55,336 bases of DNA from the IMG/VR virus record IMGVR_UViG_2541047870_000005, one strand, 5' to 3'. The notes below the pieces were generated by a model. That model saw only the letters and a list, made by a program, of their open reading frames with translations. It was not told the origin of the DNA and made no database searches. Source of the stretch: a virus. Lineage: Duplodnaviria > Heunggongvirae > Uroviricota > Caudoviricetes. Below are positions 1-46,986 of this stretch, piece by piece. The stretch's first letter is position 1. Every line of letters begins with the position of its first letter. The translations under genes were made by a program, and so were the position numbers.

Positions 1-867
1 ATGAAGTATGTCTTTATTGAAAAACATCAGGCTGAGTTCAGCATCAAAGCAATGTGCCGCGTGCTCCGGGTGGCCCGCAGCGGCTGGTATACGTGGTGTC
101 AGCGGCGGACAAGGATAAGCACGCGTCAGCAGTTCCGCCAACACTGCGACAGCGTTGTCCTCGCGGCTTTTACCCGGTCAAAACAGCGTTACGGTGCCCC
201 ACGCCTGACGGATGAACTGCGTGCTCAGGGTTACCCCTTTAACGTAAAAACCGTGGCGGCAAGCCTGCGCCGTCAGGGACTGAGGGCAAAGGCCTCCCGG
301 AAGTTCAGCCCGGTCAGCTACCGCGCACACGGCCTGCCTGTGTCAGAAAATCTGTTGGAGCAGGATTTTTACGCCAGTGGCCCGAACCAGAAGTGGGCAG
401 GAGACATCACGTACTTACGTACAGATGAAGGCTGGCTGTATCTGGCAGTGGTCATTGACCTGTGGTCACGTGCCGTTATTGGCTGGTCAATGTCGCCACG
501 CATGACGGCGCAACTGGCCTGCGATGCCCTGCAGATGGCGCTGTGGCGGCGTAAGAGGCCCCGGAACGTTATCGTTCACACGGACCGTGGAGGCCAGTAC
601 TGTTCAGCAGATTATCAGGCGCAACTGAAGCGGCATAATCTGCGTGGAAGTATGAGCGCAAAAGGTTGCTGCTACGATAATGCCTGCGTGGAAAGCTTCT
701 TTCATTCGCTGAAAGTGGAATGTATCCATGGAGAACACTTTATCAGCCGGGAAATAATGCGGGCAACGGTGTTTAATTATATCGAATGTGATTACAATCG
801 GTGGCGGCGGCACAGTTGGTGTGGCGGCCTCAGTCCGGAACAATTTGAAAACCAGAACCTCGCTTAG
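1..867 (+). CDS. IS3-family transposase OrfB (DDE catalytic domain)
   Basis: 288-aa ORF, identical to ORF 2238-3104 (-); upstream orfA lies outside the window. Confidence 0.85.
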
Positions 868-897
868 GCCTGTGTCCATATTACGTGGGTAGGATCA
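1..897 (+). mobile_element. IS3-family insertion sequence, copy 1 (partial; the window starts inside the element, only the orfB half and right terminal repeat are visible)
   Basis: ORF 1-867 is identical in translation to the orfB of the complete copy at 2238-3104; terminal sequence gtgggtaggatca ending at 897 is the reverse complement of the end of copy 2 at 2208. Confidence 0.8.
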
Positions 898-950
898 GTA
901 GGCTTTTATTCAACCTCGGGTGAAATACACATGCAGTTAAGATTTATGCA

Positions 951-2006
951 ATGTATAACAACAAAGGCGGTGTTGGAAAAACAACACTTGGTTTCAACAT
1001 TGCTGCACAGTATGCAGAAGAAAATCCCAGCACACAGGTACTAGTAATAGATTTGTGTCCGCAAGCAAACATTTCTCAATACCTGCTTGGAGGAGGTGAT
1101 CGTGGGTACAATACTAATCAAGAGCTACAATCTTCACGAACACGCAAAAATGTCGTAGGGTTTCTGGACTGGCTTTTAGATGGCCATTCAAATTTCACCA
1201 GTATTCGACGTTCTTTCAAAGTAGCAGTAAACCAATATAATGATGAAATCAGCGATAATTTGTTTCTCATCGCCGGTGATTCATTCCTCGAGTCCCTTAC
1301 TCTTGCACTGAACTATGCAGTTATCAGTCCAGCTAACAGGTTCGCATGGAAAGAGTATATGACAGCATTTCGTCGACTATGTACTCTAGAACATGATATT
1401 GATGATTACGATGATATGGTTGTCTTTATTGACTGTAATCCAAGTTTTTCTATCTACACCCAAATGGCTCTACTATCTTCAGATAGACTGGTCGTCCCTA
1501 TGATGGCTGATTACAGTTCATTAGAAGGGATGAAAGGAATAATGATGCTTCTTTATGGCCATTATCCCTCTTCTGCTGCACAAACCTATGCAGAAAAGTT
1601 TGTCACTTTTCATAGCCAAGTTGTGAATAATAATCTTACATTACCTAAGTTAGATCGCTTTGTTTTCAATAACTTTACGTCTAATCTTGGTGTTGCCAGA
1701 GCTTATGATTCAATCAAAGAATCCCTTTGTGCTTTTGCTTTTACACAATATCAGAACTTCCCAGAACTATTCACGGAGCGATATCGTGAAATCAATAACT
1801 TAAATGAATGGGAGGCGGCCTATCTTTCTGAAGTTAAAGATTTTCATACTTCAGGGAAAGTTTCTGCAAGTTTGGGAATTCCTCTTTTCAAACTTCCTGC
1901 TCAAACTCATTATGAAATGCCAAACGGTGAAATTATCAACGTTGTAAGAGAGCGTTATCGCGAGGCTAGAGAACATGTAAACGCTTTAGTAGAAACATTC
2001 TATTAA
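951..2006 (+). CDS. ParA/MinD-like P-loop ATPase (deviant Walker A KGGVGKTT), about 100-aa C-terminal extension; 5' end possibly abnormal
   Basis: N-terminus MYNNKGGVGKTT is the deviant Walker A box of the ParA/MinD/Soj superfamily; AT-rich gene; in-frame upstream codons (924-950) read KYHAVKIYA, resembling the beta-strand that normally precedes the P-loop, but no canonical start codon lies upstream. Confidence 0.65.
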   Translation: MYNNKGGVGKTTLGFNIAAQYAEENPSTQVLVIDLCPQANISQYLLGGGDRGYNTNQELQSSRTRKNVVGFLDWLLDGHSNFTSIRRSFKVAVNQYNDEISDNLFLIAGDSFLESLTLALNYAVISPANRFAWKEYMTAFRRLCTLEHDIDDYDDMVVFIDCNPSFSIYTQMALLSSDRLVVPMMADYSSLEGMKGIMMLLYGHYPSSAAQTYAEKFVTFHSQVVNNNLTLPKLDRFVFNNFTSNLGVARAYDSIKESLCAFAFTQYQNFPELFTERYREINNLNEWEAAYLSEVKDFHTSGKVSASLGIPLFKLPAQTHYEMPNGEIINVVRERYREAREHVNALVETFY

Positions 2007-2237
2007 GTGATTATATCGACCCTTGAACATAAAGTACGTTATTATTCAGTGTCTGATATTTTATATGTATTAATCATTATAAATAATGGCTGCATTTAAT
2101 TGTAGCCATTACTTTAAAACATTGTACAAATGGCAGGTGTAGTCTTTAACGCAACTCTAATGATAATCATCAATGTAAATATTCATTTATACTTTAAATG
2201 GGTAGGCTGATCCTACCCACGTAATATGGACACAGGC

Positions 2238-3104
2238 CTAAGCGAGGTTCTGGTTTTCAAATTGTTCCGGACTGAGGCCGCCACACCAACTGTGCCGCCG
2301 CCACCGATTGTAATCACATTCGATATAATTAAACACCGTTGCCCGCATTATTTCCCGGCTGATAAAGTGTTCTCCATGGATACATTCCACTTTCAGCGAA
2401 TGAAAGAAGCTTTCCACGCAGGCATTATCGTAGCAGCAACCTTTTGCGCTCATACTTCCACGCAGATTATGCCGCTTCAGTTGCGCCTGATAATCTGCTG
2501 AACAGTACTGGCCTCCACGGTCCGTGTGAACGATAACGTTCCGGGGCCTCTTACGCCGCCACAGCGCCATCTGCAGGGCATCGCAGGCCAGTTGCGCCGT
2601 CATGCGTGGCGACATTGACCAGCCAATAACGGCACGTGACCACAGGTCAATGACCACTGCCAGATACAGCCAGCCTTCATCTGTACGTAAGTACGTGATG
2701 TCTCCTGCCCACTTCTGGTTCGGGCCACTGGCGTAAAAATCCTGCTCCAACAGATTTTCTGACACAGGCAGGCCGTGTGCGCGGTAGCTGACCGGGCTGA
2801 ACTTCCGGGAGGCCTTTGCCCTCAGTCCCTGACGGCGCAGGCTTGCCGCCACGGTTTTTACGTTAAAGGGGTAACCCTGAGCACGCAGTTCATCCGTCAG
2901 GCGTGGGGCACCGTAACGCTGTTTTGACCGGGTAAAAGCCGCGAGGACAACGCTGTCGCAGTGTTGGCGGAACTGCTGACGCGTGCTTATCCTTGTCCGC
3001 CGCTGACACCACGTATACCAGCCGCTGCGGGCCACCCGGAGCACGCGGCACATTGCTTTGATGCTGAACTCAGCCTGATGTTTTTCAATAAAGACATACT
3101 TCAT
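2238..3104 (-). CDS. IS3-family transposase OrfB
   Basis: 288-aa ORF overlapping the 3' end of orfA in the -1 frame, as expected for the IS3 frameshift-fusion arrangement. Confidence 0.85.
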
Positions 3105-3406
3105 TTCAGACGATTCGCAAAGTATGTCGCGGCCTTTTGGAGGATAGCCAGTTCCTCTGCCTGCTCCGCCAGTTGCCGCTTCAGGCGGGCATTTTCAGCG
3201 GCCAGTTCACTTTCACGCTCTGACGAACTCATTTGTTGCTGCAGTTTGCTGCGCCACGCATAGAGCTGTGATTCATACAGGCTGAGTTCACGGGCTGCGG
3301 CAGCAACACCGATGCGTTCAGCAAGTTTCAGGGCTTCACTGAGAAATTCAGGCGAATGCTGTTTACGTTTTTTTACTGGTTGAAACTGTTTTGTCTTGTG
3401 AGTCAC
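3101..3406 (-). CDS. IS3-family transposase OrfA (HTH DNA-binding, leucine zipper); GTG start
   Basis: 101-aa ORF ...[38 protein letters not shown]...[16 protein letters not shown] closely resembles IS3 OrfA; the start codon at 3404-3406 is GTG on the minus strand. Confidence 0.8.
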
Positions 3407-24600: not shown

Positions 24601-24627
24601 AATAGGGCAGATACTGCCCTATTTTAA
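24601..24627. terminator. Bidirectional rho-independent terminator between convergent portal gene and cargo operon
   Basis: aaaa-tagggcag-atac-ctgccctat-tttt: 8-bp stem, 4-nt loop, A-tract on one side and T-tract on the other. Confidence 0.7.
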
Positions 24628-25476
24628 CCAAATATTATAATCCAATCTTTCTACGTATCTTGAAATAACGGCTAGAGCAATTGCTTGCCCTACACTTGTT
24701 AGTTCAATTCCTTGATAGTTGCTCTTTGAAAATTTTTCTAAAAATGCAGACACATGAGGGGCAACTAACTTAAGATTTGAAATATACGCACTCTTATCTT
24801 TTATATCAGTCGGATATTTATCCATGAAATAGTCTTCAACATCTATCCCTAAAAAAGTATTCCATGAACAAGCCCCTGCATATTGAATGTGATATATCTG
24901 GGCTTGAGACAAATTAAACCCATTAGTATACATTGGTTCAAGATTTCTAAAATTGCGCTCCAACAAATCCAATCGAACACCATTAACAGGATCTTTGATC
25001 TCAACATTCTTGAGAAGAAAAACTATCGTTATAAGTGATATTTGTTGCTGTGTTAACTTTGGAACTACAGTAACTGCCTCCGTTAAAACTATATCTCTAA
25101 AATCGTCATTGTTATTGGAGACTCGTTCAACTAACAACTGAGAAAGCACATCCATATTAGCTTTCTTTCCCTTCCTGGCTGATGACTTTAATGCCTCAGT
25201 CAATGTCGCCTGAACGTCCGGATCGCAAAATTTATCAATAATCAATCTATCAACGTTTTTTGTTAAATCCGAAACGACACGCTCTTCAAAATCTTTTGCA
25301 TTCTCTTGAGCTGCAGCATAAGCAACATCTTTCAATTTTGGGAACTGATTTTCGAAGAGAATGTTGAATAGTTCTCTAACCTCGGAAAACGACATCCCTG
25401 AAACATTTACATTATTTCCAGCTTGAATTGCATACGAATTATTACCTATTTGTTGCTTTTGTTTATCACTAAACAT
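24619..25476 (-). CDS. Hypothetical 285-aa protein, AT-rich cargo between portal gene and cos-like site; second gene of a two-gene operon
   Basis: Long AT-rich ORF 9 bp downstream of the small membrane-protein gene; no recognisable motifs. Confidence 0.7.
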   Translation of the reverse strand: MFSDKQKQQIGNNSYAIQAGNNVNVSGMSFSEVRELFNILFENQFPKLKDVAYAAAQENAKDFEERVVSDLTKNVDRLIIDKFCDPDVQATLTEALKSSARKGKKANMDVLSQLLVERVSNNNDDFRDIVLTEAVTVVPKLTQQQISLITIVFLLKNVEIKDPVNGVRLDLLERNFRNLEPMYTNGFNLSQAQIYHIQYAGACSWNTFLGIDVEDYFMDKYPTDIKDKSAYISNLKLVAPHVSAFLEKFSKSNYQGIELTSVGQAIALAVISRYVERLDYNIWLK

Positions 25477-25485
25477 ATATCCTCC

Positions 25486-25731
25486 TTATTTTTTATCACC
25501 TGTATTTATACAATCAATTTTAATATCACCGCCAGCCTGGACACCAATTGAATTATCACCAACTGATTGACTCATAGAATTATATTTATTTTTTGTAGTG
25601 ATAAGTAATCCAGCTAAAGCGCTAACTGCAGCCAAAAATGCAACAATAGAATCAAAACCAGGATCCATATAAAGCCATAATCCAGCAATCAATGCCAGTA
25701 TACATGTAATGACTATTGCAAAAATTTTCAT
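25486..25731 (-). CDS. Small membrane protein (81 aa, two predicted TM helices); first gene of the cargo operon
   Basis: Hydrophobic segments IFAIVITCILALIAGLWLY and IVAFLAAVSALAGLLIT; C-terminal motif resembles the N-terminus of the downstream protein. Confidence 0.6.
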   Translation of the reverse strand: MKIFAIVITCILALIAGLWLYMDPGFDSIVAFLAAVSALAGLLITTKNKYNSMSQSVGDNSIGVQAGGDIKIDCINTGDKK

Positions 25732-25785
25732 AAGTTCTCCTTCTAATGGAAGTGGTTATACCGAAAACAATTTCCTTTTACAACC

Positions 25786-25935
25786 ACGCTCAGCGCGCGC
25801 TCGTATCCCCGCCACGCCTGCCCGCTTTGTATAGCGGTTTTCATGCACTCGCATGGCATAAGGGAAACCTTGCCAGAACTGGCGACCCTCAGCGAAAACG
25901 ATCTTCAAACGATCATGCGGATTCATGCAGCATAG
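25786..25935. other. Putative prophage cos (packaging) region
   Basis: GC-rich non-coding segment homologous to 42890-43033; minus strand reads GGCGTGGCGGGGA, matching my recollection of the P2/186-family cohesive end. Confidence 0.5.
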
Positions 25936-26138
25936 ACAGGCACTACTGAGCAATAGCGCTTGAGTTCAGTCAGATATGAGTCCTCAATGTAATACTAATA
26001 CATCTTAACCGTTCATCATTATTCACATCGGGCTATGTAATTACAGAAAAACTTTTCACAATCAATTTTATACTGGATTATTTCAGTTTATTGTATAATT
26101 CATGACGCATGCAAATTGACATTAATTCAGGAGACAAA

Positions 26139-27050
26139 ATGACATTAATTGTAGCTGGTTTCGAAAAAGATGGAACAATTGTTTTTTGCGGGGACTCACT
26201 AATAACAACAAAAGCAAATGGAAGCACTGTAAAATTGACATCGTCCTTTAGAAAAATAATACCACTAGAAATTATTGTGCGAGTACCGGAAATCGATCCA
26301 AGTGGAAAAATCATAAATTACATTGAAAGCCTTTGCCAACATCGCTGCATGATTGCATTTGCAGGAAGCACGCTAGTTTCTCAACATATTATAAATTCTA
26401 TACAAGGTCATCTGAAACAAATAAAATACACATATGATTCTGGCACATATGACTATTCAGAAGGATGCATAAAGGGTGCTGGCTATAAGTTAATAATGGG
26501 TTGTGAAGATAACAAAAGCGTTGAGGAAACCTATTGGAACGAAGATATGTTTGTTGAGCCAGTAAAGAATGCGAACGAACTTATTAATAAAAATTTTCTA
26601 CGCAACGTCTTTAGCCACTGCATACAGAAAACCATGAATGAATTTTACATTAATATTAATGAGGAATTTAATCCAGAGTGGTTTGCAAGCGATTTCATTG
26701 TAGCTCTGTCTTGCTATGAGACTAAAAAAAACCATCTTTTTACCTTTAAAATGGAATTTAATGAGTCAGGGGTCAATCTTATAGAAAAAGAAATTAATAT
26801 CAATGAACTGGCAATAATTGGCATTTCAAGATATAGCGAAGAAATAATTCAAGCATATCAAACTCAAAAAGCGACCCTCAGTACATCTGAAATTCTCAGC
26901 CAAGAGATTACTAAAGCAATCATAGACAATGAAAGCATTGATCTTAGAGAAATAGGAGATCCTGTCGTATTAAAAAAATTCAATCAACATCGTGAATTAC
27001 GTGATGAGCAAAAACACTGGAGGTGCAATACTCCTCGAGAAAACCAATAA
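26139..27050 (+). CDS. HslV/proteasome beta-subunit-like (Ntn-hydrolase fold) protein, about 303 aa, AT-rich cargo gene
   Basis: SD aggag 5 nt upstream of ATG 26139 (ORF track starts at 26109); MTLIVAGFEKDGTIVFCGDSLIT...VKL...IAFAGST...LAIIGISRYSEEIIQAY parallels HslV [21 protein letters not shown]...KK...AGFAGGT...LIAIGSGGPYAQAAARAL (recalled from memory). Confidence 0.5.
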   Translation: MTLIVAGFEKDGTIVFCGDSLITTKANGSTVKLTSSFRKIIPLEIIVRVPEIDPSGKIINYIESLCQHRCMIAFAGSTLVSQHIINSIQGHLKQIKYTYDSGTYDYSEGCIKGAGYKLIMGCEDNKSVEETYWNEDMFVEPVKNANELINKNFLRNVFSHCIQKTMNEFYININEEFNPEWFASDFIVALSCYETKKNHLFTFKMEFNESGVNLIEKEININELAIIGISRYSEEIIQAYQTQKATLSTSEILSQEITKAIIDNESIDLREIGDPVVLKKFNQHRELRDEQKHWRCNTPRENQ

Positions 27051-34881: not shown

Positions 34882-36093
34882 ATGAAAATTAATAAAATTA
34901 GTACCACAGATTATGTAGCAATGCTTAATGAAATATTATTCGAAATAGAGTCCAAACCACTATTACAAGCTCCTTATCTCGCGGGAAATAATATCATTAA
35001 AGATTTTAACAATAGGGTTAAATGTTACCTAGAAGTCATAAACAAGATTTACAGTAAAAACCCTCACAACCTTGTAATTCGTGAAATAAAATCAAAAATA
35101 AAAAGCACAAAAACACTCTCGGATAAAATTTCAGAAACACTTAGATTATATTTAAACGGTAAAATCAAAGAATCTTACCTAACATTTGATCACGCTATCA
35201 CCAAGACAAATATAAATGACCACATCTATAATATGTCCGTTCCATTAAGTGTATTTTGTCATCCTGGAAAACCTCTATTTCGCGTAAGAAAAAGCGATCA
35301 AATAATAAAAGAAAGGCGTGATATCTTTCATATTCCTTTTTCTAAACGTTATCTTGTGAATGCACAAAGATACTCAGTCTCAGGCCTTCCTTGTTTATAT
35401 TTAGGAACCTCTATTTTTGTATGTTGGCAAGAAATGGAAAAACCAGACTTTGATAAATTATATGTATCTTCATTCATCACAGAGTCTGGTTCATCACATA
35501 GAATACTTAACCTTGGTTATAATTTGAGATCAGCATTGAACATAAACACCTTAGCATGGCTGTTAGATAATGATACTGAAGGAACTATGAATAGGGTCAT
35601 TTCGAACTTAATTTCCTGGCCACTTGTGTTAGCCTGTAATTATACAAAACAACATAAAAACTCTAGTTTCAACCCTGAGTACATAATCCCCAACCTTCTT
35701 ATGCAATGGCTCAGCAGCAATGAAAATAAGGGCATAGCCGGTATCGCTTATCGCACGACTAAAATTCTCAATCAAAAAGATAGTGATATTGGTATTAATA
35801 TAATCATGCCACCTAAAATGGATAATATTTTGGATTCTGGTTATGATTACTGCCCACACTTACTAAATATATTTAAATTTACCAAACCTGTTTCATGGCA
35901 AGTATTTAGCACTTTAAACGTCAAGACCGATGGTATGGATGAAGATAGACTCATAATGGGAGGACCAACTCCAGCATCAGGTACAATTGAAGATTTTGAT
36001 GAATCGCTAGTGGAATATTACAATAATACCTCATTCAAAAAAGTTCAATTGTTAATTCATAAAATGATGAAGCATGATTATCTTGAGCCTTAA
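34882..36093 (+). CDS. RES-domain-like protein (403 aa) with about 150-aa N-terminal extension; AT-rich cargo
   Basis: Segment RYSVSGLPCLYLGTSIFVCWQE reproduces the spacing of the RES-domain core (R-W-N-x-P-G-x-P-x-L-Y-x-x-x-S...E) as I recall the consensus. Confidence 0.5.
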   Translation: MKINKISTTDYVAMLNEILFEIESKPLLQAPYLAGNNIIKDFNNRVKCYLEVINKIYSKNPHNLVIREIKSKIKSTKTLSDKISETLRLYLNGKIKESYLTFDHAITKTNINDHIYNMSVPLSVFCHPGKPLFRVRKSDQIIKERRDIFHIPFSKRYLVNAQRYSVSGLPCLYLGTSIFVCWQEMEKPDFDKLYVSSFITESGSSHRILNLGYNLRSALNINTLAWLLDNDTEGTMNRVISNLISWPLVLACNYTKQHKNSSFNPEYIIPNLLMQWLSSNENKGIAGIAYRTTKILNQKDSDIGINIIMPPKMDNILDSGYDYCPHLLNIFKFTKPVSWQVFSTLNVKTDGMDEDRLIMGGPTPASGTIEDFDESLVEYYNNTSFKKVQLLIHKMMKHDYLEP

Positions 36094-36126: not shown

Positions 36127-37080
36127 ATGCAGTTACAAAAAACCTCTAACTCCATTATAGAAATAGGAAGTGATCTGATGAATAACATCATCTATACAAA
36201 CGAACAATATGAAATCGAAAATCTAAGTATAGCCCTGTATGCAATTTTCGATAAAATAAAAGAAAGGATTTCCATCGCCGAAGAATCTAACATTTACACT
36301 ATCAGAGATGTTGGTCATAACTCGGAATCTCAAGTTTGCAAAAACACTTTTAATAAATTAACGCAATTTTTTGATTCAAACATTCTTTACATCCAAGACT
36401 GTGAAGTCTTAATTTCATATATAACAGAGTGTAGTTTGGAACTCTCTGTTATAGCGCAACAATTTTATGAAATACTCTGGAGCGATTTGTTAATAACCAC
36501 ACCAGACAAAGATTTTAAAGGGATTTTAGTAGCAAAATCGCCAAAAACAAGCTTGCTATTTTCTTTGTTAAGCATGCTATTTATAAAAATGAATAGTTTG
36601 TTTGACTACGTTACTAAAATCTCCTTTGAATTATTAAAGAGTAACTTCCCAATCTCTAAATACAAGAAATTAATATCCAAAAATAAATTATACGGCAACT
36701 ATAAAGAATTAGTTTTTTCGACAACAACGGATACCATATTTGAAAATAGCAATTTTATAAACACTGTAACATCATTACGAAATCATATAATTCACCACGG
36801 TTATATAGATGAGCACCCAAAGGTATATGTTGAAGTGGAAAATGGCATTGCATTTGGGAGATTTGTACTATTCCCCGATTTGAATGAGAGTGGAGGACTG
36901 GAAAATTGCATTAACAGAACTTTATTCTATTCAAAAGAAACAAAGATTGATGAAAAATTACCTGACTTAATTAAGGAATGCCAAATTAAAGTAATTAACT
37001 CGTTGAAGGTACTAATTAAAGATCATGAAGCATTAGAAGATTCAAGAAAGACTGGCGGCACTTTGGCGGCAGAGCATTAA
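36127..37080 (+). CDS. Hypothetical 317-aa protein with HEPN-like Rx4H motif (Abi-like candidate); AT-rich cargo
   Basis: Motif LRNHIIHHGY; gene lies 33 bp downstream of the RES-like gene on the same strand. Confidence 0.45.
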   Translation: MQLQKTSNSIIEIGSDLMNNIIYTNEQYEIENLSIALYAIFDKIKERISIAEESNIYTIRDVGHNSESQVCKNTFNKLTQFFDSNILYIQDCEVLISYITECSLELSVIAQQFYEILWSDLLITTPDKDFKGILVAKSPKTSLLFSLLSMLFIKMNSLFDYVTKISFELLKSNFPISKYKKLISKNKLYGNYKELVFSTTTDTIFENSNFINTVTSLRNHIIHHGYIDEHPKVYVEVENGIAFGRFVLFPDLNESGGLENCINRTLFYSKETKIDEKLPDLIKECQIKVINSLKVLIKDHEALEDSRKTGGTLAAEH

Positions 37081-37165
37081 AAACGAGTAAAATGAACAAA
37101 CACCGAGTAATACCAACCTACTGTTTTAAAAAGCAAATCATTGTTTTTGTTATAGTTAAGATAGT

Positions 37166-37210
37166 ATGTAGGAATTTCGGACGCGGGTTCAACTCCCGCC
37201 AGCTCCACCA
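37166..37210 (+). other. ssrA: 45-nt 3' terminal fragment of tmRNA gene ssrA ending in CCA (integration core / att copy), not a complete ssrA
   Basis: atgtaggaatttcggacgcgggttcaactcccgccagctccacca matches the E. coli ssrA 3' end; sequence upstream does not continue the ssrA match. Confidence 0.8.
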
Positions 37211-37279: not shown

Positions 37280-37330
37280 TGTTTGTCGTTGTCCGAGAAC
37301 ATCCGGCTAAATCCGATGATTATTGGTATA

Positions 37331-37384
37331 CGTTTCGGTATACGGTAGGATGTATACCTAAAAGCGTATACCAATTCATGAAGG
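37331..37384. promoter_or_regulatory. Cluster of four GGTATAC/GTATACC sites upstream of the satellite integrase gene
   Basis: ttGGTATACgtttcGGTATACggtaggatGTATACCtaaaagcGTATACC; the first 23 bp recur at 49543-49565. Confidence 0.5.
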
Positions 37385-37394
37385 AGCGGCCACA

Positions 37395-38594
37395 GTGGCA
37401 CGGACAACACGCCCCCTGACCAACACCGAAGTTCTGCGCGCGAAAGCGTTAGAGAAGGATCTAACGCTGCATGATGGCGATGGGCTTTTCCTGATAGTGA
37501 AAACTAGCGGCAAGAAACTCTGGCGCTTTCGCTATCAACGCCCAGCAACAAAACAGCGGACTATGATGGGACTTGGTGCTTTTCCTGCCCTTTCTCTTGC
37601 TGATGCCCGAGGGTTAAGAGCAGATTACCTTGCCCTATTAGCCAACGGAATCGACCCGCAAATTCAAGCTGAAGTTGCAGAGGAACAGCAGCAAATCGCT
37701 CTGGACAGTATTTTTTCGACGGTCGCCGCTAACTGGTTCCAGCTCAAAAGCAAAAGCGTTACCCATGATTACGCTAAAGATATATGGCGTTCACTGGAAA
37801 AAGACGTATTCCCCACCATCGGGGAGATCCCTGTCCAGCAAATCAAAGCCCGAACACTGGTTGAAGCCCTTGAACCGATCAAAGCTCGTGGGGCGCTGGA
37901 GACGGTGCGCCGGTTGGTGCAGCGTGTTAACGAGATAATGATTTATGCCGTAAATACTGGTCTTATTGATGCCAATCCAGCATCAGGCATTGGAATGGCC
38001 TTTGAGAAGCCAAAAAAACAAAATATGCCTACGTTGCGCCCAGAAGAATTGCCTATGCTGATGCGTTCTCTCGTCATGTCAAATTTGTCTGTTCCGACTC
38101 GCTGCCTCATTGAGTGGCAACTCCTGACTCTAGTTCGTCCTTCTGAGGCTTCCGGTGCTAGGTGGGCTGAGCTCGATCTCGATGCAAAGCTCTGGACTAT
38201 CCCAGCTGAACGAATGAAGGCTAAGCGGGAACACATAGTCCCTCTATCTCCTCAGGCATTAGAGATTCTTGATGTGATGAAGCTAATCAGTGCCCATCGT
38301 GAACATGTTTTCCCGAGTCGGAATGACCCAAAGCAACCAATGAATAGCCAGACGGCAAATGCTGCTTTAAAAAGGATTGGATTTGGTGGTAGATTGGTTG
38401 CTCATGGATTGCGTTCAATTGCCAGCACCGCATTAAATGAAGCGGGTTTTAATGCAGATGTAATTGAGGCTGCTCTTGCACATAGTGATAAAAATGAAGT
38501 GCGCAGAGCATATAATCGTTCAACTTACCTTGAGCAACGAATAGGACTTATGAATTGGTGGGGCCAAAAAGTGTACGAGCGCAATCAATATTAG
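37395..38594 (+). CDS. P4-type tyrosine integrase (IntA-like); GTG start
   Basis: 399-aa ORF about 185 bp downstream of the ssrA core, as for intA next to ssrA in E. coli K-12; integrase-like N-terminal region. Confidence 0.85.
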   Translation: MARTTRPLTNTEVLRAKALEKDLTLHDGDGLFLIVKTSGKKLWRFRYQRPATKQRTMMGLGAFPALSLADARGLRADYLALLANGIDPQIQAEVAEEQQQIALDSIFSTVAANWFQLKSKSVTHDYAKDIWRSLEKDVFPTIGEIPVQQIKARTLVEALEPIKARGALETVRRLVQRVNEIMIYAVNTGLIDANPASGIGMAFEKPKKQNMPTLRPEELPMLMRSLVMSNLSVPTRCLIEWQLLTLVRPSEASGARWAELDLDAKLWTIPAERMKAKREHIVPLSPQALEILDVMKLISAHREHVFPSRNDPKQPMNSQTANAALKRIGFGGRLVAHGLRSIASTALNEAGFNADVIEAALAHSDKNEVRRAYNRSTYLEQRIGLMNWWGQKVYERNQY

Positions 38595-38623: not shown

Positions 38624-39082
38624 ATGGAGAATAATCTAGATAATTTATGTTATGAATTCTTTAGAGAGTTTTCACGTTATGAATATTGCCTTAAGGCATG
38701 TGGACTTCATCATAAAATAAAAGATGCTAAAGCGAACTGGGATGAGTATGCAAAGCAAGTTTCTGAAATCATAAATAACACAACTGATCCAGAGCTAATT
38801 GCTGCTATCACCTACTTTAAAGAACACCCACCCAAAAAACAAATCATAGAAGATGACTCTTTAGTTTGGGATGATTCTTTACCACAAGAAAAAGATTTAG
38901 CAAAATTTCTTTTTTTGTTAATCCGCCGTGTAAGAAACAATCTTTTTCACGGAGGAAAATTTAACGGGAAATGGTTTGAACCTGAACGTAGTGAGGCGTT
39001 ACTGCAACATGGCCTTGTTATTTTGAGGCATTGCGGCACAAGGCATAGTGAAGTAAGCAAAGCCTATTCTGGAATAGCCTGA
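38624..39082 (+). CDS. Hypothetical 152-aa protein with HEPN-like Rx4H motif
   Basis: Motif RRVRNNLFHGG; AT-rich; first cargo gene after int. Confidence 0.45.
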   Translation: MENNLDNLCYEFFREFSRYEYCLKACGLHHKIKDAKANWDEYAKQVSEIINNTTDPELIAAITYFKEHPPKKQIIEDDSLVWDDSLPQEKDLAKFLFLLIRRVRNNLFHGGKFNGKWFEPERSEALLQHGLVILRHCGTRHSEVSKAYSGIA

Positions 39083-39096
39083 GCGGTGTTATAAAA

Positions 39097-39143
39097 GAGA
39101 AGTTTTTGTTACTGGAAGAATGATAAAATTCAAAAACTTCTCT
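39097..39143. terminator. Long inverted repeat between convergent genes (candidate bidirectional terminator)
   Basis: agagaagtttttg ... caaaaacttctct, 13-bp arms, 21-nt spacer. Confidence 0.4.
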
Positions 39144-39174: not shown

Positions 39175-41757
39175 CTATTGTACCCAAAAGTTACGAAATA
39201 TATTATGTATTTCGTTTTGAACTAATTGTGGCAGTTCTTCCATGTCAACTTTATTGTCCTTAATCCAATTAATGCATTCTTCCTCATCTAAACTATCATT
39301 AGGAATAAGCTCTGAAATCATTACAGCAGCAGTTCTTGAAAAGCCAAGCCCTATTAGTGAAATCTGAGTTTTTAAACTTACACCCAGTTCTAAATAAACA
39401 CCGATATCTTCAACATCTTTTGCTAAGTCTGTGCGATCTATCGAAAGATAAAAGCTTTTTAATAAATCATTATAACATCCTAAAAGCCTTGGAGCTTGAT
39501 AGCGAGCGATCTCTTCAACATCCTTCATAACCCCTCGTATTAAAGTCGCTTCTTTGAAAACAATATTTTTCTTTTTGTTATATCTTATTCTATCCGAGAT
39601 CAATCTTGCTAGGGGATAACCTTTCATCCACTTGGAAACTAACAAGGCCTGTACGTAAGCTCCTTTTGAATTATAACCTAGCTTCTTACTCAGAGTATCA
39701 CTAATTCTAGAGAATGCGGATACATATGAATCTAACGCATCATTACTACCAGGTTCAGAAAGCAGTAATCTCTCTACAGGTTTGTTTGTATCCCGCGAAA
39801 ATCTATCCCAAAGGTTTTGCATTAAAAGCGGGCTTATACCAGGATGCCGCACAACCAATTCGTGTGGAAAAGTTAAAGAATCAAAAACATCAAATATTGC
39901 TTCATTTAAAACATCGATATTTTTTATATTGTACTTTTCCATGTAAGGATTATTATCCAAGCCATTATAAAAATAAAATGATGAACATAAATAACTAAAT
40001 AGACTCTGGAGATTAGGATTCCGCTCAGACATACCAAAATGATGCTCTGAAAAAATATAGGAAACCAACTTATCCATGTCATGGGAAATAGCATCCGTGG
40101 CGCGAGTTATAAATATATTTTTTTTGGTTTTTGGAGGCTCTCCATTCCAAATTTTTTCATTGTCGCTATCGATGCAGATGACATTACCTTGGAATTCTTT
40201 TCCCCAACGACCAGCTCTGCCAGCAAGATTCCAAAAATCCTCTTCTCGCATCGGGGTTGAATTACCCTTTTTAGGGCCTCTTATAAAAATATTTTTACAA
40301 GCCATGTTTACGCCCTCAACTAAAGTTGAGGTACAAATTAAAAAATCAATCTTACCTTTACTAAACAATCGTTCAATCTCGCCCTTTATTATTAAAGGCA
40401 TGTTGCCATAATGAAAAGCGACTCTCTTTTTTAGAGTGCGATTTAATGCGAAATTTTTATGTATAATTGTCTCACTAAGCTCAACGAGAGCTAAAATTTC
40501 TTCATCCTCAGTCTCATTTTCTATACTTGCAGATATTAGCTTGGAAGTAGATTCTGCTTCAGCGGCTCCATTTACGTAAACTACGTTACCAGAAGCCCCC
40601 TTACCTAAACAAAGAGCTACAAAAGGCAATCTTTTACTTTCAGGAGATGGTGCATTTTCTAAAGAAAAGTTTCCTAACTCGCGTTTTTCACCGTTTGCAA
40701 AATAATACATCAACCAATCTTTGGTCTTGCGTGGTTTTTGTTCTACCCATATTAAATTTTGATTAACTGTAACATAGTCACTTTTTATAGTTCTTTTGTT
40801 TTTTAATATTGGAGCATCACTGAGCAATATTTCAGGATTTAAGGTGAAAGGACTTGCAAAGATAACTTTTGAATCAGGGTTATTTAGACAAGTCAGTTCA
40901 ATTACATGTTGAAGAATAACACCTCTTCCACCATCACCGATCTTGTGTGCTTCATCAACAACTAAGACGTCTATCTTTGGAATTTGTGAGAAATGATTGT
41001 AGAATAAATTTAATCTTTCCTGTGTAAATATGAAGACATTAGATTTTTCGCTCTGGTATACATTACTCAATGGTAGTGTCTGAATATTAACTATATTTGT
41101 TAAATTAGGATCCAAACGTTTTTGCAACTCAGAATATACTTCTGAAATCAATGCCCTTGTTGGTACGATATAAATAACTAAGCAATTCTTATTTCTTTTT
41201 ACAAACTGCTCCACCCAAGATTCCAGGATAAATGATTTTCCTACAGAGGTAGGAGCAGAGACACTAACCCATGAGTTTTCTTGTACCGCATCCCAAAACT
41301 CTGATTGAAACCTATTAGCATAAATATGCTTATCAGCATCTATTTCAATTGTATATAGAATTTTTCTTTTAGTTAGTTCTAACTGAGCCTTTAAGGGTAA
41401 TCTTTCTTCGAAATCAGGGTTAAGATACCCCCTATTTTCAGCAAGTTGTATTGCTGGATTATTAGATAATGAATCAAGAATTAATGCAGCACTATCTTTT
41501 CTTGCTTCACTTTTTTCATTCAATAAGCAATACTGTGCAATCCTTAAGGCTGCATCTTGGCATTTCTCATCACTTGAGAAAGCCAAAGAACTAGCACATG
41601 TTAAAAGATAGCCGACATCCTCAGAACTAATCTGTGGGATTACATCTGATTTTAACTCTGGAAATTGATCTTTTATCGAGTTAGCGACTAATGCCTGATA
41701 TTTTCTTAAGAATCCTTGATTCTTAATCAACCACCCAGATAAATCTCGCAACGACAT
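39175..41757 (-). CDS. hamB: SF2 DExH-box helicase, HamB-like (Hachiman-type defence helicase candidate)
   Basis: 860-aa AT-rich ORF; Walker A APTSVGKSF and motif II VLVVDEAHKIG; start overlaps the stop of the upstream gene. Confidence 0.55.
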   Translation of the reverse strand: MSLRDLSGWLIKNQGFLRKYQALVANSIKDQFPELKSDVIPQISSEDVGYLLTCASSLAFSSDEKCQDAALRIAQYCLLNEKSEARKDSAALILDSLSNNPAIQLAENRGYLNPDFEERLPLKAQLELTKRKILYTIEIDADKHIYANRFQSEFWDAVQENSWVSVSAPTSVGKSFILESWVEQFVKRNKNCLVIYIVPTRALISEVYSELQKRLDPNLTNIVNIQTLPLSNVYQSEKSNVFIFTQERLNLFYNHFSQIPKIDVLVVDEAHKIGDGGRGVILQHVIELTCLNNPDSKVIFASPFTLNPEILLSDAPILKNKRTIKSDYVTVNQNLIWVEQKPRKTKDWLMYYFANGEKRELGNFSLENAPSPESKRLPFVALCLGKGASGNVVYVNGAAEAESTSKLISASIENETEDEEILALVELSETIIHKNFALNRTLKKRVAFHYGNMPLIIKGEIERLFSKGKIDFLICTSTLVEGVNMACKNIFIRGPKKGNSTPMREEDFWNLAGRAGRWGKEFQGNVICIDSDNEKIWNGEPPKTKKNIFITRATDAISHDMDKLVSYIFSEHHFGMSERNPNLQSLFSYLCSSFYFYNGLDNNPYMEKYNIKNIDVLNEAIFDVFDSLTFPHELVVRHPGISPLLMQNLWDRFSRDTNKPVERLLLSEPGSNDALDSYVSAFSRISDTLSKKLGYNSKGAYVQALLVSKWMKGYPLARLISDRIRYNKKKNIVFKEATLIRGVMKDVEEIARYQAPRLLGCYNDLLKSFYLSIDRTDLAKDVEDIGVYLELGVSLKTQISLIGLGFSRTAAVMISELIPNDSLDEEECINWIKDNKVDMEELPQLVQNEIHNIFRNFWVQ

Positions 41758-41758
41758 T

Positions 41759-42700
41759 TCAACTCTCCAATGCTTTAATTAAACTAGCCCTAAATGCTTT
41801 TACTGAAGGAAAAGGAAGAATAAAAACATGCATAGCAAAGCGATCAAGTTTTTTATTAACTATACCACCTTGCACACTAGTTGACCATTTCCCGACTTTA
41901 GTATTAATCAAAGCAACTAGTTCACTGATATCAATTGAACTGGGCCCTTGTGGATAATCTTTAAGATCAAACCCAACTAAGCATATTCCTCTGTATTCCA
42001 ATTTATTAAAATCCGGGCTATCAGGATCTAAGAATCTTTTCAACGCTTGTTCTAGTTCTATATCATCAACATTTAAGTGCGACTCCAGCAACTGCATATC
42101 ACGTGTCTCAGCGCCTTCTATTCCCATAGAACTTTGAAGTAATGGAGCTATACTATCCATACACTCAGAAATACCTTTGCTCAGATTGGAATAGAGTTTA
42201 GACTCGCCCCAGTATAAACATAATTTTTTATTATCTTTATCTACGCCTATATGTATTCCATCTGCACCATGGTAATGCATTTGAGAACTCGTTTTCAGGC
42301 TCATTTTGCAAATAATTTGTGGAAATCTAAGGAATTGCTCTGCAAATAAAAAAAGAATAAATTCACCGCCTTCGCCACTATTTGCAAGCCTAGTAAATAA
42401 TTTTTTTGCTTGATTTGCTAATTTTGTTATTTTCGCTGTTGATTGTGTTTCATTAAAATATTGCACTGCCTCATTGATTTTTTTCCTTGGAATAGCATAA
42501 TCAACTACTTTATCGTTCAAGAATTGGATTAACGCGTCTACCCGAGGACGTCCATTGCCATCAAGATTAAGGCAATGAAAATGACAAGTTGCATTTGTAT
42601 TTTCAATCAATGAATTAACTTTAACTTCACTAAAATAACTATTTAGTGTTTGACCATCATCTCTAATCAGATTTTCAAGCGCGACATGCAGTGCATCCAT
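41759..42700 (-). CDS. hamA: HamA-like protein with PD-(D/E)xK-type motif (Hachiman-type effector candidate)
   Basis: 313-aa AT-rich ORF immediately upstream of the helicase; GIHIGVD ... LYWGESK resembles a PD-(D/E)xK nuclease signature. Confidence 0.5.
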   Translation of the reverse strand: MDALHVALENLIRDDGQTLNSYFSEVKVNSLIENTNATCHFHCLNLDGNGRPRVDALIQFLNDKVVDYAIPRKKINEAVQYFNETQSTAKITKLANQAKKLFTRLANSGEGGEFILFLFAEQFLRFPQIICKMSLKTSSQMHYHGADGIHIGVDKDNKKLCLYWGESKLYSNLSKGISECMDSIAPLLQSSMGIEGAETRDMQLLESHLNVDDIELEQALKRFLDPDSPDFNKLEYRGICLVGFDLKDYPQGPSSIDISELVALINTKVGKWSTSVQGGIVNKKLDRFAMHVFILPFPSVKAFRASLIKALES

Positions 42701-42889
42701 GAGTAGGTCCTTGCATATTTTATTTTCCTCATCATTTGCAATATATACTTATTTCAATAGCTTGCAACATTTTTACTCGACAATGATACTTACACCACAC
42801 TCGCTGCTTAAAATCATTGTTATCGCTTTAACGTGATAAACGATTCTTTCAATCAGGTACTCATTGAAAGTTAAAAGTTACTTTGACCA

Positions 42890-43033
42890 TACACAGCGTG
42901 CGCTGCCCCGCCCGCCTGCCCGCTTCGCTTAACAGACTGGTTTTCATGCACCCCGTAAATCGTCTCAGAAGCCACCACACAAGGGCTTTCGCGTCAAAAA
43001 TGGCGCATGAGACTCATGCGTTTTCATGCGCTA
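42890..43033. other. Putative satellite cos (packaging) region
   Basis: GC-rich non-coding segment homologous to 25786-25935; minus strand reads GGCGGGCGGGGCAGCGCACGCTG, resembling the P2/P4 cohesive end as I recall it. Confidence 0.45.
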
Positions 43034-43125: not shown

Positions 43126-43398
43126 TCAGACAGGAATTAGCTGACGGCTTGACAGCTTTGACGCGGAGCCATAGCGGTTGAGAGTTTGCTGTTGTTTTTC
43201 TGGCATTTGTTCTTTGTCTGATTCCTGTTCATTGCGCCAAGGCTTCATAATTATCGTATCCACGCTTTCCAGAGCGGTAAATGTGCAGGAACATTCCAGA
43301 TTCTGGCACTGATACCATGAGCGTTTAACCGATGGAGCTTCATAGGCGCTGGTTCTGGCGTGAGCGACCGTCCCACATTCAGGACACTTCAGGGCCAT
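43126..43398 (-). CDS. Delta/Ogr-like zinc-finger transactivator of helper late genes
   Basis: MALKCPECGTVAHARTS...YQCQNLECSCTF matches the Ogr/Delta zinc-finger pattern; start taken at the internal Met; the ORF track begins at 43500. Confidence 0.7.
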   Translation of the reverse strand: MALKCPECGTVAHARTSAYEAPSVKRSWYQCQNLECSCTFTALESVDTIIMKPWRNEQESDKEQMPEKQQQTLNRYGSASKLSSRQLIPV

Positions 43399-43399
43399 A

Positions 43400-43954
43400 T
43401 CAGTACCCTCCTTTTTCATTAAGTCGGTTAAGGCGGGCCAGGAAAACTTTATGTTGTGCCGGGGTGAAACTGGTTGAAGCATCAGCGTACATTGATGCAT
43501 CCACCGTTAATCCGGTTTCGTCGATAATGCTCTTGTATGCTGCTGAAATTACCGGAGTACGCACTTCCGTTTGTCGGGCTACAGCGGTTCGTAATATTTT
43601 CATTGCCGCCTCAAGCCCGTATGGAGCGCAAAGAAAAGGAGCCAGTGCGTCAGTGAGTGCATCACCATGCTCGCTCATGAAGTTTTCCGTTGCGCTTGTA
43701 ACACAACTCTCCAGCACAATCTGGTGAGCATAAAGACCATCCCGTGCAGCACAGTTAATCTGCCATTCGAGGACAGCAAGACGCTCACGAAGCTCCTCAA
43801 GCTGGCTGGCATATGCTGCCGGTTTTTCTTCAGTATTCAGCAGAGCCGCCAGACGAAGCTGGTAGGTACTTTGCGTATTACGTAGTGTCAGCCAGCTTTT
43901 TATCGCCGAGCGGTAATCGTTGAGAGCTTCCTGAGTAATGGTTCCGGCATTCAT
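43400..43954 (-). CDS. psu: Psu-like protein (polarity suppression / capsid decoration)
   Basis: 184-aa ORF in the sid-psu-delta block; segments FMSEHGDALTDALAPF and SFTPAQHKVF resemble P4 Psu as I recall it. Confidence 0.55.
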   Translation of the reverse strand: MNAGTITQEALNDYRSAIKSWLTLRNTQSTYQLRLAALLNTEEKPAAYASQLEELRERLAVLEWQINCAARDGLYAHQIVLESCVTSATENFMSEHGDALTDALAPFLCAPYGLEAAMKILRTAVARQTEVRTPVISAAYKSIIDETGLTVDASMYADASTSFTPAQHKVFLARLNRLNEKGGY

Positions 43955-44736
43955 TTCTTCTCGCCCCCTTTAACCATGTCACGCTGTTTAAGCATCCGTG
44001 AACGCGCTGCAGGGCTGGGGGATTGTCTGGCATCCTGGATGGCTTTATCGTCCGCATAAATGCTGATCCCCGGCAGGGTAATATCATCCGTTGAAGATAC
44101 GTTACAGGACAGTGCCGGAGTGGTGAGGTGCTCGCTGATAAATTGCTTCAGCACACTTTCGGGGTCGTTTACGGTATGAACTACACCGATAACAGCAGAA
44201 GCGCTTCGGCCCAGAGTCATTTTCAACAGTCCAAGGATCTGAATAAGTTTCTGGCCGTGTTCCTTCATAAACTCATTCCAGAGCCACACTGCATGAGTTT
44301 CAATCAGGCGATTATGTTCGCTGATGTAGTGGTTTGCAGCATCCGCAGTTTTCCAGGGCAGGAATTCATTTTCTGCCACCTGAGCTGCCAGCAAATCTTC
44401 GAACTCATCCAGTGTTTCGCGTCCGAGGGCGATTTCTGCCCGCAGTTTTTTCATGCGTGGTGTCATATTTCCCTGATTCTCACGAAACAGGTTTCGCCAT
44501 TCATCATTAAGCGCCTGCGTTTCCGTTTTTGTATCTTCCTGACGTTTACGGATAGTTTCAATCATTGCAGCAGCTTCAGTTTGTTTTCGCCGTTCTTCCT
44601 GCCAGACAGCTTTTGCTGCCTTAACTTTTTCCACCGCTTCGCGAATTTTCGGCGGGAGGGAGGATGTAATGTTTGCATCAGAGATCTGGTTAACAGTAGT
44701 CATGAATGCTCCGGTAGTGTTTTGTTGTCGTGTCAA
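43951..44736 (-). CDS. sid: Sid-like capsid size-determination protein
   Basis: 261-aa coiled-coil-rich ORF first in the operon upstream of psu; assignment by position and size. Confidence 0.45.
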   Translation of the reverse strand: MTRQQNTTGAFMTTVNQISDANITSSLPPKIREAVEKVKAAKAVWQEERRKQTEAAAMIETIRKRQEDTKTETQALNDEWRNLFRENQGNMTPRMKKLRAEIALGRETLDEFEDLLAAQVAENEFLPWKTADAANHYISEHNRLIETHAVWLWNEFMKEHGQKLIQILGLLKMTLGRSASAVIGVVHTVNDPESVLKQFISEHLTTPALSCNVSSTDDITLPGISIYADDKAIQDARQSPSPAARSRMLKQRDMVKGGEKK

Positions 44737-45616: not shown

Positions 45617-45877
45617 ATGCATGATATTTCTGTTTCTGCGCCAGCTCCGGCTGCGCCATTATTTCCTGTGCTGAACCAGCATGAGCGATTTTTACGTCTT
45701 CCCGAGGTGATGCATTTATGCGGCTTGTCCCGCTCAACTATATACGACCTGATAAGCCGCGATGCTTTCCCGAAGCAGATCCCGCTTGGTGGTAAAAATG
45801 TTGCCTGGGCACAGTCAGAGGTAAGCGCATGGATGGCGGATCGTATAAGTGCCCGCGGACGGGGATGTGATGCATAA
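45617..45877 (+). CDS. alpA: AlpA/Vis-family transcriptional regulator
   Basis: [48 protein letters not shown] is the typical AlpA-family HTH signature. Confidence 0.8.
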
Positions 45878-46428
45878 TGATGCCTGAACGCATTAATCCC
45901 CATTTTTCTGGCTTGCATCCTGCAGTCATTTCCAGGTATAGTTTTTCCGCTGCCGCAAAATCGGCAGCCGGAATTGGCGTTCCGCGAAACTCAATGGCGA
46001 CACCAGACGCGCCAAGCGTCTTTTTTTTCGTCGAAGCTCTGGCACACCCATTTTCCAGGCTGTGGTGTTTATGCGTACACCGTGGTTCTTTCGAGATAAT
46101 GGCAGTCCGGGCGGGGCAGCCTTCGGGCTGGCCGGTATCCATTGAGGCCGGTTACGCCAACCCCGTTCGGGCTGCCACCAGTGAAATTGGCGTTTCCGGT
46201 GGTAGCAATAACCGCTACTCAATGGAGGCTGCCATCATGGCTACAACCCTCACCCCGTTTTACCCGCAATATGTCTTTGTGCTTGCCGCAATCCGCCGTG
46301 CTGACACTCAACCCCGCATCTGTATGCTTCGCACCGTGGCCTGCGATGAGCGCTTTGCACGCCTTTCGCTGGTCCGTGATTATGTGCTCTCCCTTTCTGC
46401 ACGGCTGCCTGCCGGGGAGGTGATGTGA
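45877..46428 (+). CDS. Hypothetical protein (start uncertain), translationally coupled to downstream genes
   Basis: GC-rich ORF whose stop overlaps the next start (ATGA); several overlapping alternative ORFs on both strands make the 5' end unreliable. Confidence 0.35.
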
Positions 46429-46652
46429 TGAATCACGCCGCAATTTCTTATGACGATATTGTCCGCCTCAAGCATCTTCGTAACGTGGGGGAATTTGTCA
46501 CCGGAATGGCTGTTCTTCAGGACTGCTATGAAAAACCTGCAGGTGCTCAATGTGAGCAACTGGTTTCCCTGATTTATCTGATGACAGAACAGCTTGATGG
46601 CGTGGTACAGCGTTGCCAGGATGACCTGATGAACAAGGAGGTGGTGCAATGA
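46425..46652 (+). CDS. Hypothetical small protein (75 aa)
   Basis: 4-bp start/stop overlaps with flanking genes (operon coupling). Confidence 0.5.
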
Positions 46653-46972
46653 AATCACGCACTCTTCCCCTCTCACTTCGGCTGGCGTTATATCGCCGCG
46701 CGGTTGCCTGCGCCTGGCTGAGTATCTGCCATCAGCACAACCGCCACCTGCAGCTCACTCTGGATGAAATTGAAACCGCCATTGCCCGTGAGCTTGAAGG
46801 TTTTTATCTGCGACAGCACGGGCAAACAAAAGGCATGGAAATCGCCTGCGCCCTGCTTTCAGACCTGATGGAATCCGGTCCTCTAATGTCCTGCCCCGCA
46901 CTCTCCCAGCTCGGAATAGCCGTAATGGATGAGTTATGCGTCCGTCACATTATAAAGCCGGTTTTACACTGA
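46649..46972 (+). CDS. Hypothetical protein (107 aa)
   Basis: Coupled ORF immediately upstream of the primase gene. Confidence 0.5.
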
Positions 46973-46986
46973 GGGAGAACTGCATC

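Follow-up and report, generated by a model that had tools for sequence, protein, structure and literature searches.

A probable type I-A Hachiman system in the cargo slot of a P4-like satellite at the 3′ end of ssrA

The viral DNA record IMGVR_UViG_2541047870_000005 (Caudoviricetes) comprises 55,336 nucleotides, which are called the window in the following. At positions 39,175 to 42,700, it carries two adjacent genes, named hamA and hamB here, which very probably represent an intact Hachiman defence system of type I (type I-A), located in the cargo slot between the integrase gene (int) and the putative cos site of a P4-like satellite of approximately 12.5 kb at the 3′ end of the ssrA gene. A preliminary description prepared from the sequence letters had already proposed type I Hachiman at this position. 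The proposal was borne out by full-length matches of both proteins to the HamA1 and HamB1 models of PADLOC, by a fold match of the predicted HamA structure and by the conservation of the gene pair elsewhere, and the system falls into type I-A in the scheme of Cui et al. As judged from its sequence, the locus holds every feature required by the Hachiman scheme.

Identification and subtype of the hamAB pair

The features of the locus are as follows (positions in the window, strand in brackets).

39096..39143 (no strand assigned): inverted repeat of 13 bp without mismatch, located where orf152 and hamB converge, which may act as a terminator in both directions (RNAfold)
39175..41757 (-): hamB, 860-aa DEAH helicase of superfamily 2 (SF2), Ski2/Hel308-like, the putative sensor (open reading frame, PADLOC, Pfam, PDB sequence matches)
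41755..41772 (-): hamA/hamB junction with GGAGAG Shine-Dalgarno sequence, TGA stop codon, 1-nt spacer and ATG start codon (read from the sequence)
41759..42700 (-): hamA, 313-aa DUF1837 nuclease of the PD-(D/E)xK type, the putative effector, with D147, E166 and K168 as predicted catalytic residues (open reading frame, Pfam, PADLOC, alignment, structure model)
42740..42767 (-): candidate promoter of the sigma-70 type for hamAB, TTGCAA-16-TATATT, some 40 nt ahead of the hamA start codon (consensus scan)

The 313-aa protein with a PD-(D/E)xK-like signature mentioned in the preliminary description was recovered as the hamA open reading frame (ORF), which contains D147 and the motif E166-S-K168. 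A search for DUF1837 with profile hidden Markov models (HMMs), suggested there as a check, gave a match to Pfam family PF08878 (HamA/DUF1837) with an E-value of 2.9e-61 and 207.7 bits, compared to a curated gathering cut-off of 25 bits, with residues 56–297 aligned to positions 2–230 of the 230-position model. The PADLOC model HamA1 (PDLC00163) covered almost the entire protein (E 9.5e-136; residues 2–312 on positions 3–312 of 314). PF08878 was the single Pfam family in HamA, and neither Pfam nor PADLOC detected an extra N-terminal effector domain (Cap4, peptidase or trypsin). A search of 5.8 billion proteins yielded 973 HamA homologues, and PF08878 was present in 120 of 120 among the matches listed. 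The residues D147, E166, S167 and K168 were invariant in an alignment of 30 homologues sharing 43–84% identity. From the local base composition, which results in an expected stop rate of 0.079 per codon, we estimated chance probabilities of about 7.5e-12 for the 313-codon frame of hamA and about 2.7e-31 for the 860-codon frame of hamB.

Because the sequence searches against the PDB failed (see below), HamA was linked to solved structures by its fold. The AlphaFold2 model of the protein reached a predicted local distance difference test (pLDDT) score of 87 and a predicted template modelling (pTM) score of 0.88. Foldseek searches of the PDB with this model returned the solved HamA chains 8zue_A (E 7.8e-06) and 8vx9_A (E 1.3e-05) as the sole significant matches, both with a probability of 1.00; next came type II restriction endonucleases, headed by EcoO109I. 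The TM-scores between the model and the solved chains were only about 0.5. According to the model, HamA adopts the HamA or restriction-endonuclease-like fold.

The second gene codes for the 860-aa DExH helicase that had been described, and contains helicase motif I (Walker A, GKS at residue 173), motif II (DEAH at 268) and motif VI (GRAGR at 513). The proposed HMM check for the HamB helicase family gave 1135 bits with the PADLOC model HamB1 (PDLC00186) over the whole length (residues 1–856 on model positions 1–860 of 864), and Pfam recorded the domains DEAD (E 1.7e-19) and Helicase_C (E 1.1e-08). The closest solved relative is 9wh1_B, the 853-aa HamB of the trypsin-HamAB system, which aligned over residues 115–815 with an E-value of 3.9e-58; Brr2, Hel308, Ski2 and 8vx9_B, the HamB of E. 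coli ECOR31, followed among the PDB sequence matches. Judged by these motifs and alignments, HamB is a full-length Ski2/Hel308-like SF2 helicase of the DEAH type. Its start has been annotated in two ways: RefSeq/PGAP uses a TTG at 41730, 27 nt downstream, which gives 851 aa, whereas other gene callers use the ATG at 41757, which is preceded by a good Shine-Dalgarno sequence and gives 860 aa. Because the HamB1 model aligns from residue 1, the longer version is favoured.

Of the overlapping two-gene operon claimed in the preliminary description, the adjacency and common orientation were retained, but the overlap was wrong. Reading of the sequence places hamA directly upstream of hamB on the same strand, with the TGA stop codon at 41761–41759 separated by a single nucleotide from the ATG beginning at 41757, and with the GGAG core of the Shine-Dalgarno sequence lying within the end of hamA. 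This layout suggests translational coupling of the two genes. The pair is AT-rich, as had been noted, with a guanine plus cytosine (GC) content of 34.7% vs. 48.7% in the satellite core and 48.4% in int. Two-gene hamA-hamB pairs of matching size (313–325 aa and 858–861 aa) also occur in Acinetobacter and Brevibacillus, where they adjoin a type I restriction-modification system and a gene for a WYL regulator, respectively. Because the same module is found in these unrelated neighbourhoods, hamAB can be regarded as a self-contained unit. The order of hamA immediately before hamB is also found in Raoultella/Klebsiella.

Both proteins match the HamA1 and HamB1 models of PADLOC end to end, and no other defence family scores better. 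Hachiman type II is defined in PADLOC by an adjacent DUF3223 gene, hamC (PMC8565338); Pfam and PADLOC found no DUF3223/HamC protein among orf152 and the other neighbouring ORFs, and no ORF neighbouring hamAB matched any PADLOC model. In the scheme of Cui et al. 2025, HamA of type I-A consists of DUF1837 only and keeps the active-site residues, whereas types I-B, I-C and I-D combine an extra N-terminal domain with a dead DUF1837 (PMC11914072). Because HamA has 313 aa, a single domain and an intact D...ExK motif, we assigned the system to type I-A. A Cap4 nuclease domain, the trait of AbpAB (type I-B), is missing from HamA, and no ORF with a metallo-β-lactamase (MBL) fold is present between int and delta, which together with the missing trypsin domain excludes the Hachiman-trypsin-MBL variant. 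The defining components of type II (HamC), type I-B (Cap4) and Hachiman-trypsin-MBL (trypsin and MBL) were thus not found.

That the pair might represent a different helicase-nuclease system in a broader sense, including these three variants as well as Gabija and PDC-M23, a PADLOC candidate defence system, is very improbable. The second-best PADLOC models are HamA2 (E 7.2e-107) and HamB2 (943 bits), the PDC-M23B model matches the helicase core of HamB (E 6.6e-38), and the closest solved HamB belongs to a trypsin-HamAB system. These similarities are set against the span of the 313-aa HamA over the 314-position HamA1 model, the only partial coverage of the helicase core by PDC-M23B, the lack of accessory domains and partner genes already mentioned, and the conserved D...ExK residues, which types I-B, I-C and I-D and the trypsin-type HamA have lost.

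Still further from the evidence, and hardly credible, is the idea of a housekeeping or repair helicase of the Hel308/Lhr type beside an unrelated gene, or of a decayed, non-functional remnant. NCBIfam returned only sub-threshold Hel308-type matches for HamB and no matching model for HamA, and the locus is interrupted or truncated in some strains (see below), but both ORFs in the window are full length relative to the HMMs with all catalytic motifs intact, and hundreds of contigs carry these sequences unchanged. Among 5426 complete E. coli genomes, 20 contain identical hamAB DNA (≥99% identity), in each case as part of the chromosome; because of this rarity and the location within a mobile element, a housekeeping role does not apply. 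Exact HamA was present on 823 contigs across the Enterobacteriaceae and exact HamB on 682, with near-identical copies in Salmonella, Klebsiella, Enterobacter, Cronobacter and one Vibrio record. The identical DNA is annotated in RefSeq as 'DEAD/DEAH box helicase' and 'HamA C-terminal domain-containing protein', and one genome additionally carries the label 'Hachiman antiphage defense system protein HamA'. With its low GC content and patchy presence in E. coli, hamAB is an accessory, mobile locus.

Mechanism expected from characterised Hachiman systems

The type I-A pair was compared with the HamAB systems studied previously. In ECOR31, HamA is paired with HamB in a heterodimer and is kept in check by it on intact double-stranded DNA (Tuck et al. 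2024, PMC12278908); 3′ single-stranded DNA or DNA damage triggers the ATPase and helicase activities of HamB, and the activation of HamA that follows leads to degradation of all DNA and to abortive infection (PMC12278908). For the type I-A system of strain DEC14B (Cui et al. 2025, PMC11914072) and for that of S. thermophilus, the HamAB complex itself has been described as an ATP-stimulated non-specific nuclease. The D...E-x-K residues are catalytic in HamA of ECOR31 (E138/K140; PMC12278908) and of DEC14B (E150/K152; PMC11914072), and correspond to E166/K168 in the window. In the structure 9WH1, HamB uses helices in its N-terminal region to bind the DUF1837 domain and senses 3′-overhang DNA, which enters its helicase channel (bioRxiv 10.1101/2025.09.03.673762).

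By analogy to the systems of ECOR31 and DEC14B, from which the mechanism is carried over by homology, HamA and HamB of the satellite would form a heterodimer, with the N-terminal helical region of HamB holding HamA, and the complex would survey intact double-stranded DNA. HamB would bind 3′ single-stranded DNA that becomes exposed through phage replication or DNA damage, and would hydrolyse ATP. This step would license HamA to degrade DNA without sequence specificity, that of the phage and the host alike, and the infection would be aborted. In the quiescent satellite, constitutive expression of hamAB from a promoter of its own is probable, and the system would shield the host, the satellite and the adjacent P2-like helper prophage against unrelated phages.

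The pair shares with the ECOR31 and DEC14B systems (PMC12278908, PDB 8VX9; PMC11914072) the two-gene operon, the DUF1837-only HamA with intact D...ExK residues and the Ski2-like SF2 HamB, and an ATP- and DNA-dependent non-specific DNase leading to abortive infection would be expected in all of them. It differs in the size of HamB, which has 860 aa vs. 1174 aa in ECOR31 (8vx9_B), with Walker A at residue 173 vs. about 272 in DEC14B, and the pair belongs to a different sequence subfamily, with about 14% identity of HamA to 8vx9_A of ECOR31 despite the matching fold. The trypsin-HamAB system (PDB 9WH1; bioRxiv 10.1101/2025.09.03.673762) provides the closest solved HamB, but its HamA of 528 aa contains an N-terminal trypsin domain, lacks the nuclease residues and acts through a separate MBL DNase; the two HamA proteins barely align, even by profile (E 0.066). 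AbpAB of E. coli K-12 (type I-B; PDB 8ZUE; PMC11914072, PMC10732053) likewise combines a DUF1837 protein with an SF2 helicase and is linked to the window by the fold match to 8zue_A, but in AbpA the nuclease is a Cap4 domain at the N-terminus and DUF1837 is catalytically dead, whereas the active site of the HamA studied here lies in DUF1837 itself.

Several observations weigh against the assignment or its functional interpretation. Searches of the PDB sequences with HamA by phmmer returned nothing, even at E-values up to 10, and a profile built from 30 HamA sequences produced only marginal matches (9wh1_A, E 0.066; 8zue_A, E 0.55). Together with the low identity of about 13–14% to the solved HamA chains 8zue_A and 8vx9_A, this means that the mechanism is carried over a large distance. 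Moreover, the published mechanisms differ: HamA is released from HamB according to Tuck et al., whereas the HamAB complex is the nuclease and is stimulated by ATP binding according to Cui et al. and Tian et al. In the Hachiman papers examined, we found no experimental phage test of the exact allele; the ECOR04 and ECOR28 loci tested by Tuck et al. may or may not represent it. The scan for promoters and terminators yielded 12 sites vs. 16.6 in shuffled sequence, thus fewer than expected by chance, and for this reason the hamAB promoter is given as a candidate only. Finally, the locus has been hit in several strains: an IS5-like element of the ISKpn26 family is inserted in AH02, AH04 and CT01, hamA is annotated as a 227-aa truncation in strain D3, and in a diverged copy it is broken into two ORFs. 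Such disruptions indicate that the locus can be lost. As a separate observation on its fate, only int, orf152, hamB and hamA are left beside an autotransporter gene in E. coli CX08 (CP073718.1), and the remaining satellite is gone.

The satellite, its cargo slot and orf152

The satellite carrying hamAB is arranged in the window in the order attL, int, orf152, hamB, hamA, cos-like sequence, delta, psu, sid-like gene, regulators and RNAs, alpha primase and attR, with the following features.

37163..37210 (+): attL, the 3′-terminal ~48 nt of ssrA (tmRNA), a unique match in the window (sequence)
37395..38594 (+): P4-type tyrosine integrase (Pfam Arm-DNA-bind_3, Phage_int_M and Phage_integrase; NCBIfam NF007246, E 1.7e-176)
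38624..39082 (+): orf152, 152-aa HEPN-like protein with invariant R104-x4-H109, in the same slot but not part of Hachiman
42886..42951 (no strand assigned): cos-like sequence of 66 nt, similar to 25783–25848 near the portal gene of the P2-like prophage (71 columns, 73% identity, E 2.5e-5)
43126..44736 (-): satellite late genes delta (43126–43500), psu (43400–43954) and sid-like (43951–44736)
45617..49320 (+): regulatory and replication module with AlpA-like helix-turn-helix gene, Icd/Ash-like gene, isrK, C4 RNA, DUF5375 gene and alpha-type primase-helicase gene (Rfam, RefSeq annotation of identical DNA, Pfam families on identical loci)
45949–46026: isrK RNA (Rfam RF01394, 76.7 bits)
46095–46182: C4 RNA (Rfam RF01695, 84.6 bits; gathering score 45)
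46936–49320: alpha-type primase-helicase (RefSeq annotation of identical DNA; Zn_Ribbon_Prim, Toprim_3 and D5_N on identical loci)
49618..49637 (+): degenerate attR, a tentative boundary, TTCAGACTCCGCCAGCTCAT vs. TTCAACTCCCGCCAGCTCCA in attL (shared 10-mer and sequence reading)

The element contains the P4-like core set of P4-type integrase, psu, delta, sid-like gene, alpA-like regulator and alpha primase-helicase. Among the late genes, Pfam identified delta by Ogr_Delta (E 3.1e-16), psu by Psu (E 2e-35) and the sid-like gene by Psu as well (E 3e-07), and PHROG 6165 is Psu-like. ARAGORN and Rfam detected neither a complete ssrA nor any other tmRNA or tRNA in the window; in E. coli strain 789, an identical satellite directly follows an intact ssrA. 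A 32-nt attL probe found no second copy in the window with up to 3 mismatches, and the tentative attR shares the 10-mer CCGCCAGCTC with attL. Repeats containing GGTATAC are present at 37320–37375, beside attL and upstream of int, and at 49545–49567, just inside attR; they are plausible candidates for arm-type binding sites of the integrase.

The location of hamAB between the putative cos and int, as given in the preliminary description, agrees with these coordinates. The sequence at 42886–42951 is probably the satellite cos; it is regarded as probable rather than proven because the assignment is based on the similarity to the neighbouring P2-like prophage, and a distant-mode search of the phage collection with the intergenic region containing it returned no match.

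The view that P4-like elements carry exchangeable defence genes at this position also stood up, with the core genes and the C4 RNA identifying the element. Satellites with 89–97% identical delta-psu-sid regions bear other cargo between int and delta, namely an ATP-dependent nuclease with a UvrD helicase (Gabija-like), a SIR2 protein with an ATPase, or an MltR-family regulator with a hypothetical gene and an IS66 element. The int-cos slot of this and the related satellites holds exchangeable defence cargo. The abpAB genes (yfjL/yfjK) of E. coli K-12 lie within CP4-57, a cryptic element with a P4-type integrase at the same ssrA site. Hachiman is explicitly listed among the P4 cargo in a 2026 preprint (bioRxiv 10.64898/2026.02.27.708500), which also cites earlier work for a single hotspot near cos in P4-like satellites. 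The tmRNA locus is known as defence hotspot #9 hosting P4-like satellites (PMC10121019). The satellite in the window shares with the described hotspot the cargo position between int and cos/delta-psu and the swapping of defence systems between related backbones; there is no substantive difference, apart from the P2-like prophage that shares its att site in tandem and the gene order sid-like, psu, delta.

The identification of hamAB is correct but already known: PADLOC and PHROG contain full-length, very high-scoring models, RefSeq has named the proteins, and the P4-borne Hachiman and the tmRNA hotspot have been covered in the preprint and the publication just cited. The pair leaves no room for a novel reading. 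Its significance goes little past correct annotation, representing a textbook satellite with a broad-spectrum defence system in a dedicated cargo slot. The pair is a compact, naturally occurring type I-A system whose HamB is short (860 aa), and it may be of use for comparative biochemistry; the satellite with its adjacent P2-like helper offers a natural setting for studying how abortive infection triggered by DNA damage tolerates helper induction.

The cargo slot additionally contains orf152, which matched no Pfam, PADLOC or NCBIfam family. Its model (pLDDT 89) shows a HEPN-like fold, close relatives are labelled 'Apea-like HEPN' in UniRef, and the block R-x-R-N-N-L-F-H-G-G-K-F-N, which includes R104-x4-H109, is invariant across 25 homologues. 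It is improbable that orf152 acts together with HamAB in a three-gene system, as an extra effector or modulator like the PezAT or AbiJ genes found beside some Hachiman loci. The gene adjoins hamB, is comparably AT-rich (35.9% GC), codes for the HEPN-like Rx4H motif and fold, and accompanies hamAB in 10 of 10 sampled loci with exact HamA as well as in a diverged copy (67% identity for orf152, 84% for HamA); accessory genes beside Hachiman have been documented (PMC13064477). Yet every co-occurrence shares the layout int-orf152-hamB-hamA, so that linkage by descent explains it, and the HamAB pairs of Acinetobacter and Brevibacillus lack orf152. Because orf152 is convergent to hamB with the perfect 13-bp inverted repeat between them, the genes do not form one operon; RNAfold gave -16.6 and -14.2 kcal/mol for the two strands of this repeat, and it was not among the terminators called by the consensus scan. 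Homologues with 52–66% identity occur without HamAB in four other mobile-element settings: in a resolvase islet (Pantoea), next to an integrase of lambdoid type (E. coli), next to a serine recombinase (Enterobacter) and after an Ogr/Delta-family gene (Lelliottia). For this reason, orf152 was treated as independent co-resident cargo and not as a Hachiman component. A role as HamC or as an obligate third component was rejected on the basis of the Pfam and PADLOC results and the gene context. We saw no antitoxin partner for the gene, which is found repeatedly at those ends of satellites, prophages and resolvase islets that lie next to the recombinase. There is some, albeit low, likelihood that orf152 is a previously undescribed defence or toxin gene, which may complement or tune Hachiman here.

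Adjacent P2-like prophage and remaining window

A P2-like prophage at approximately 3450–37160 precedes the satellite in tandem at the same ssrA-derived att site, so that a potential helper lies beside its satellite. It contains ogr, D, tail, capsid and portal genes, the gene for replication endonuclease A, CI and int, and its cos-like region at 25783–25848 resembles that of the satellite. The tandem is common to 7 complete E. coli genomes.

The prophage also carries several unannotated AT-rich cargo genes. Two AT-rich ORFs (31–33% GC) are located between the P2-like integrase gene and att.

34882–36093 (+): 403-aa ORF
36127–37080 (+): 317-aa ORF

Neither matched Pfam, PADLOC or NCBIfam, and the PHROGs they hit were of unknown function (phrog_7835 and phrog_31026); the two are a candidate for an uncharacterised two-gene cargo or defence module. 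Further unannotated ORFs of low GC content are found on both sides of the P2-like cos region, in the interval from the portal gene to replication gene A.

24619–25476 (-): low-GC ORF
25486–25731 (-): low-GC ORF
26109–27050 (+): low-GC ORF

These three matched no Pfam or PADLOC family. Because strain D3 has other genes between portal and cos, including one for a STAS-like domain protein, this region is a further variable cargo slot.

At the other end of the window (1–3406), inverted copies of an IS3-family transposase gene (1–867 on the plus strand and 2238–3406 on the minus strand) flank a gene for a ParA-like AAA_31 ATPase (951–2006). The arrangement looks like a composite transposon abutting the ogr end of the P2-like prophage.

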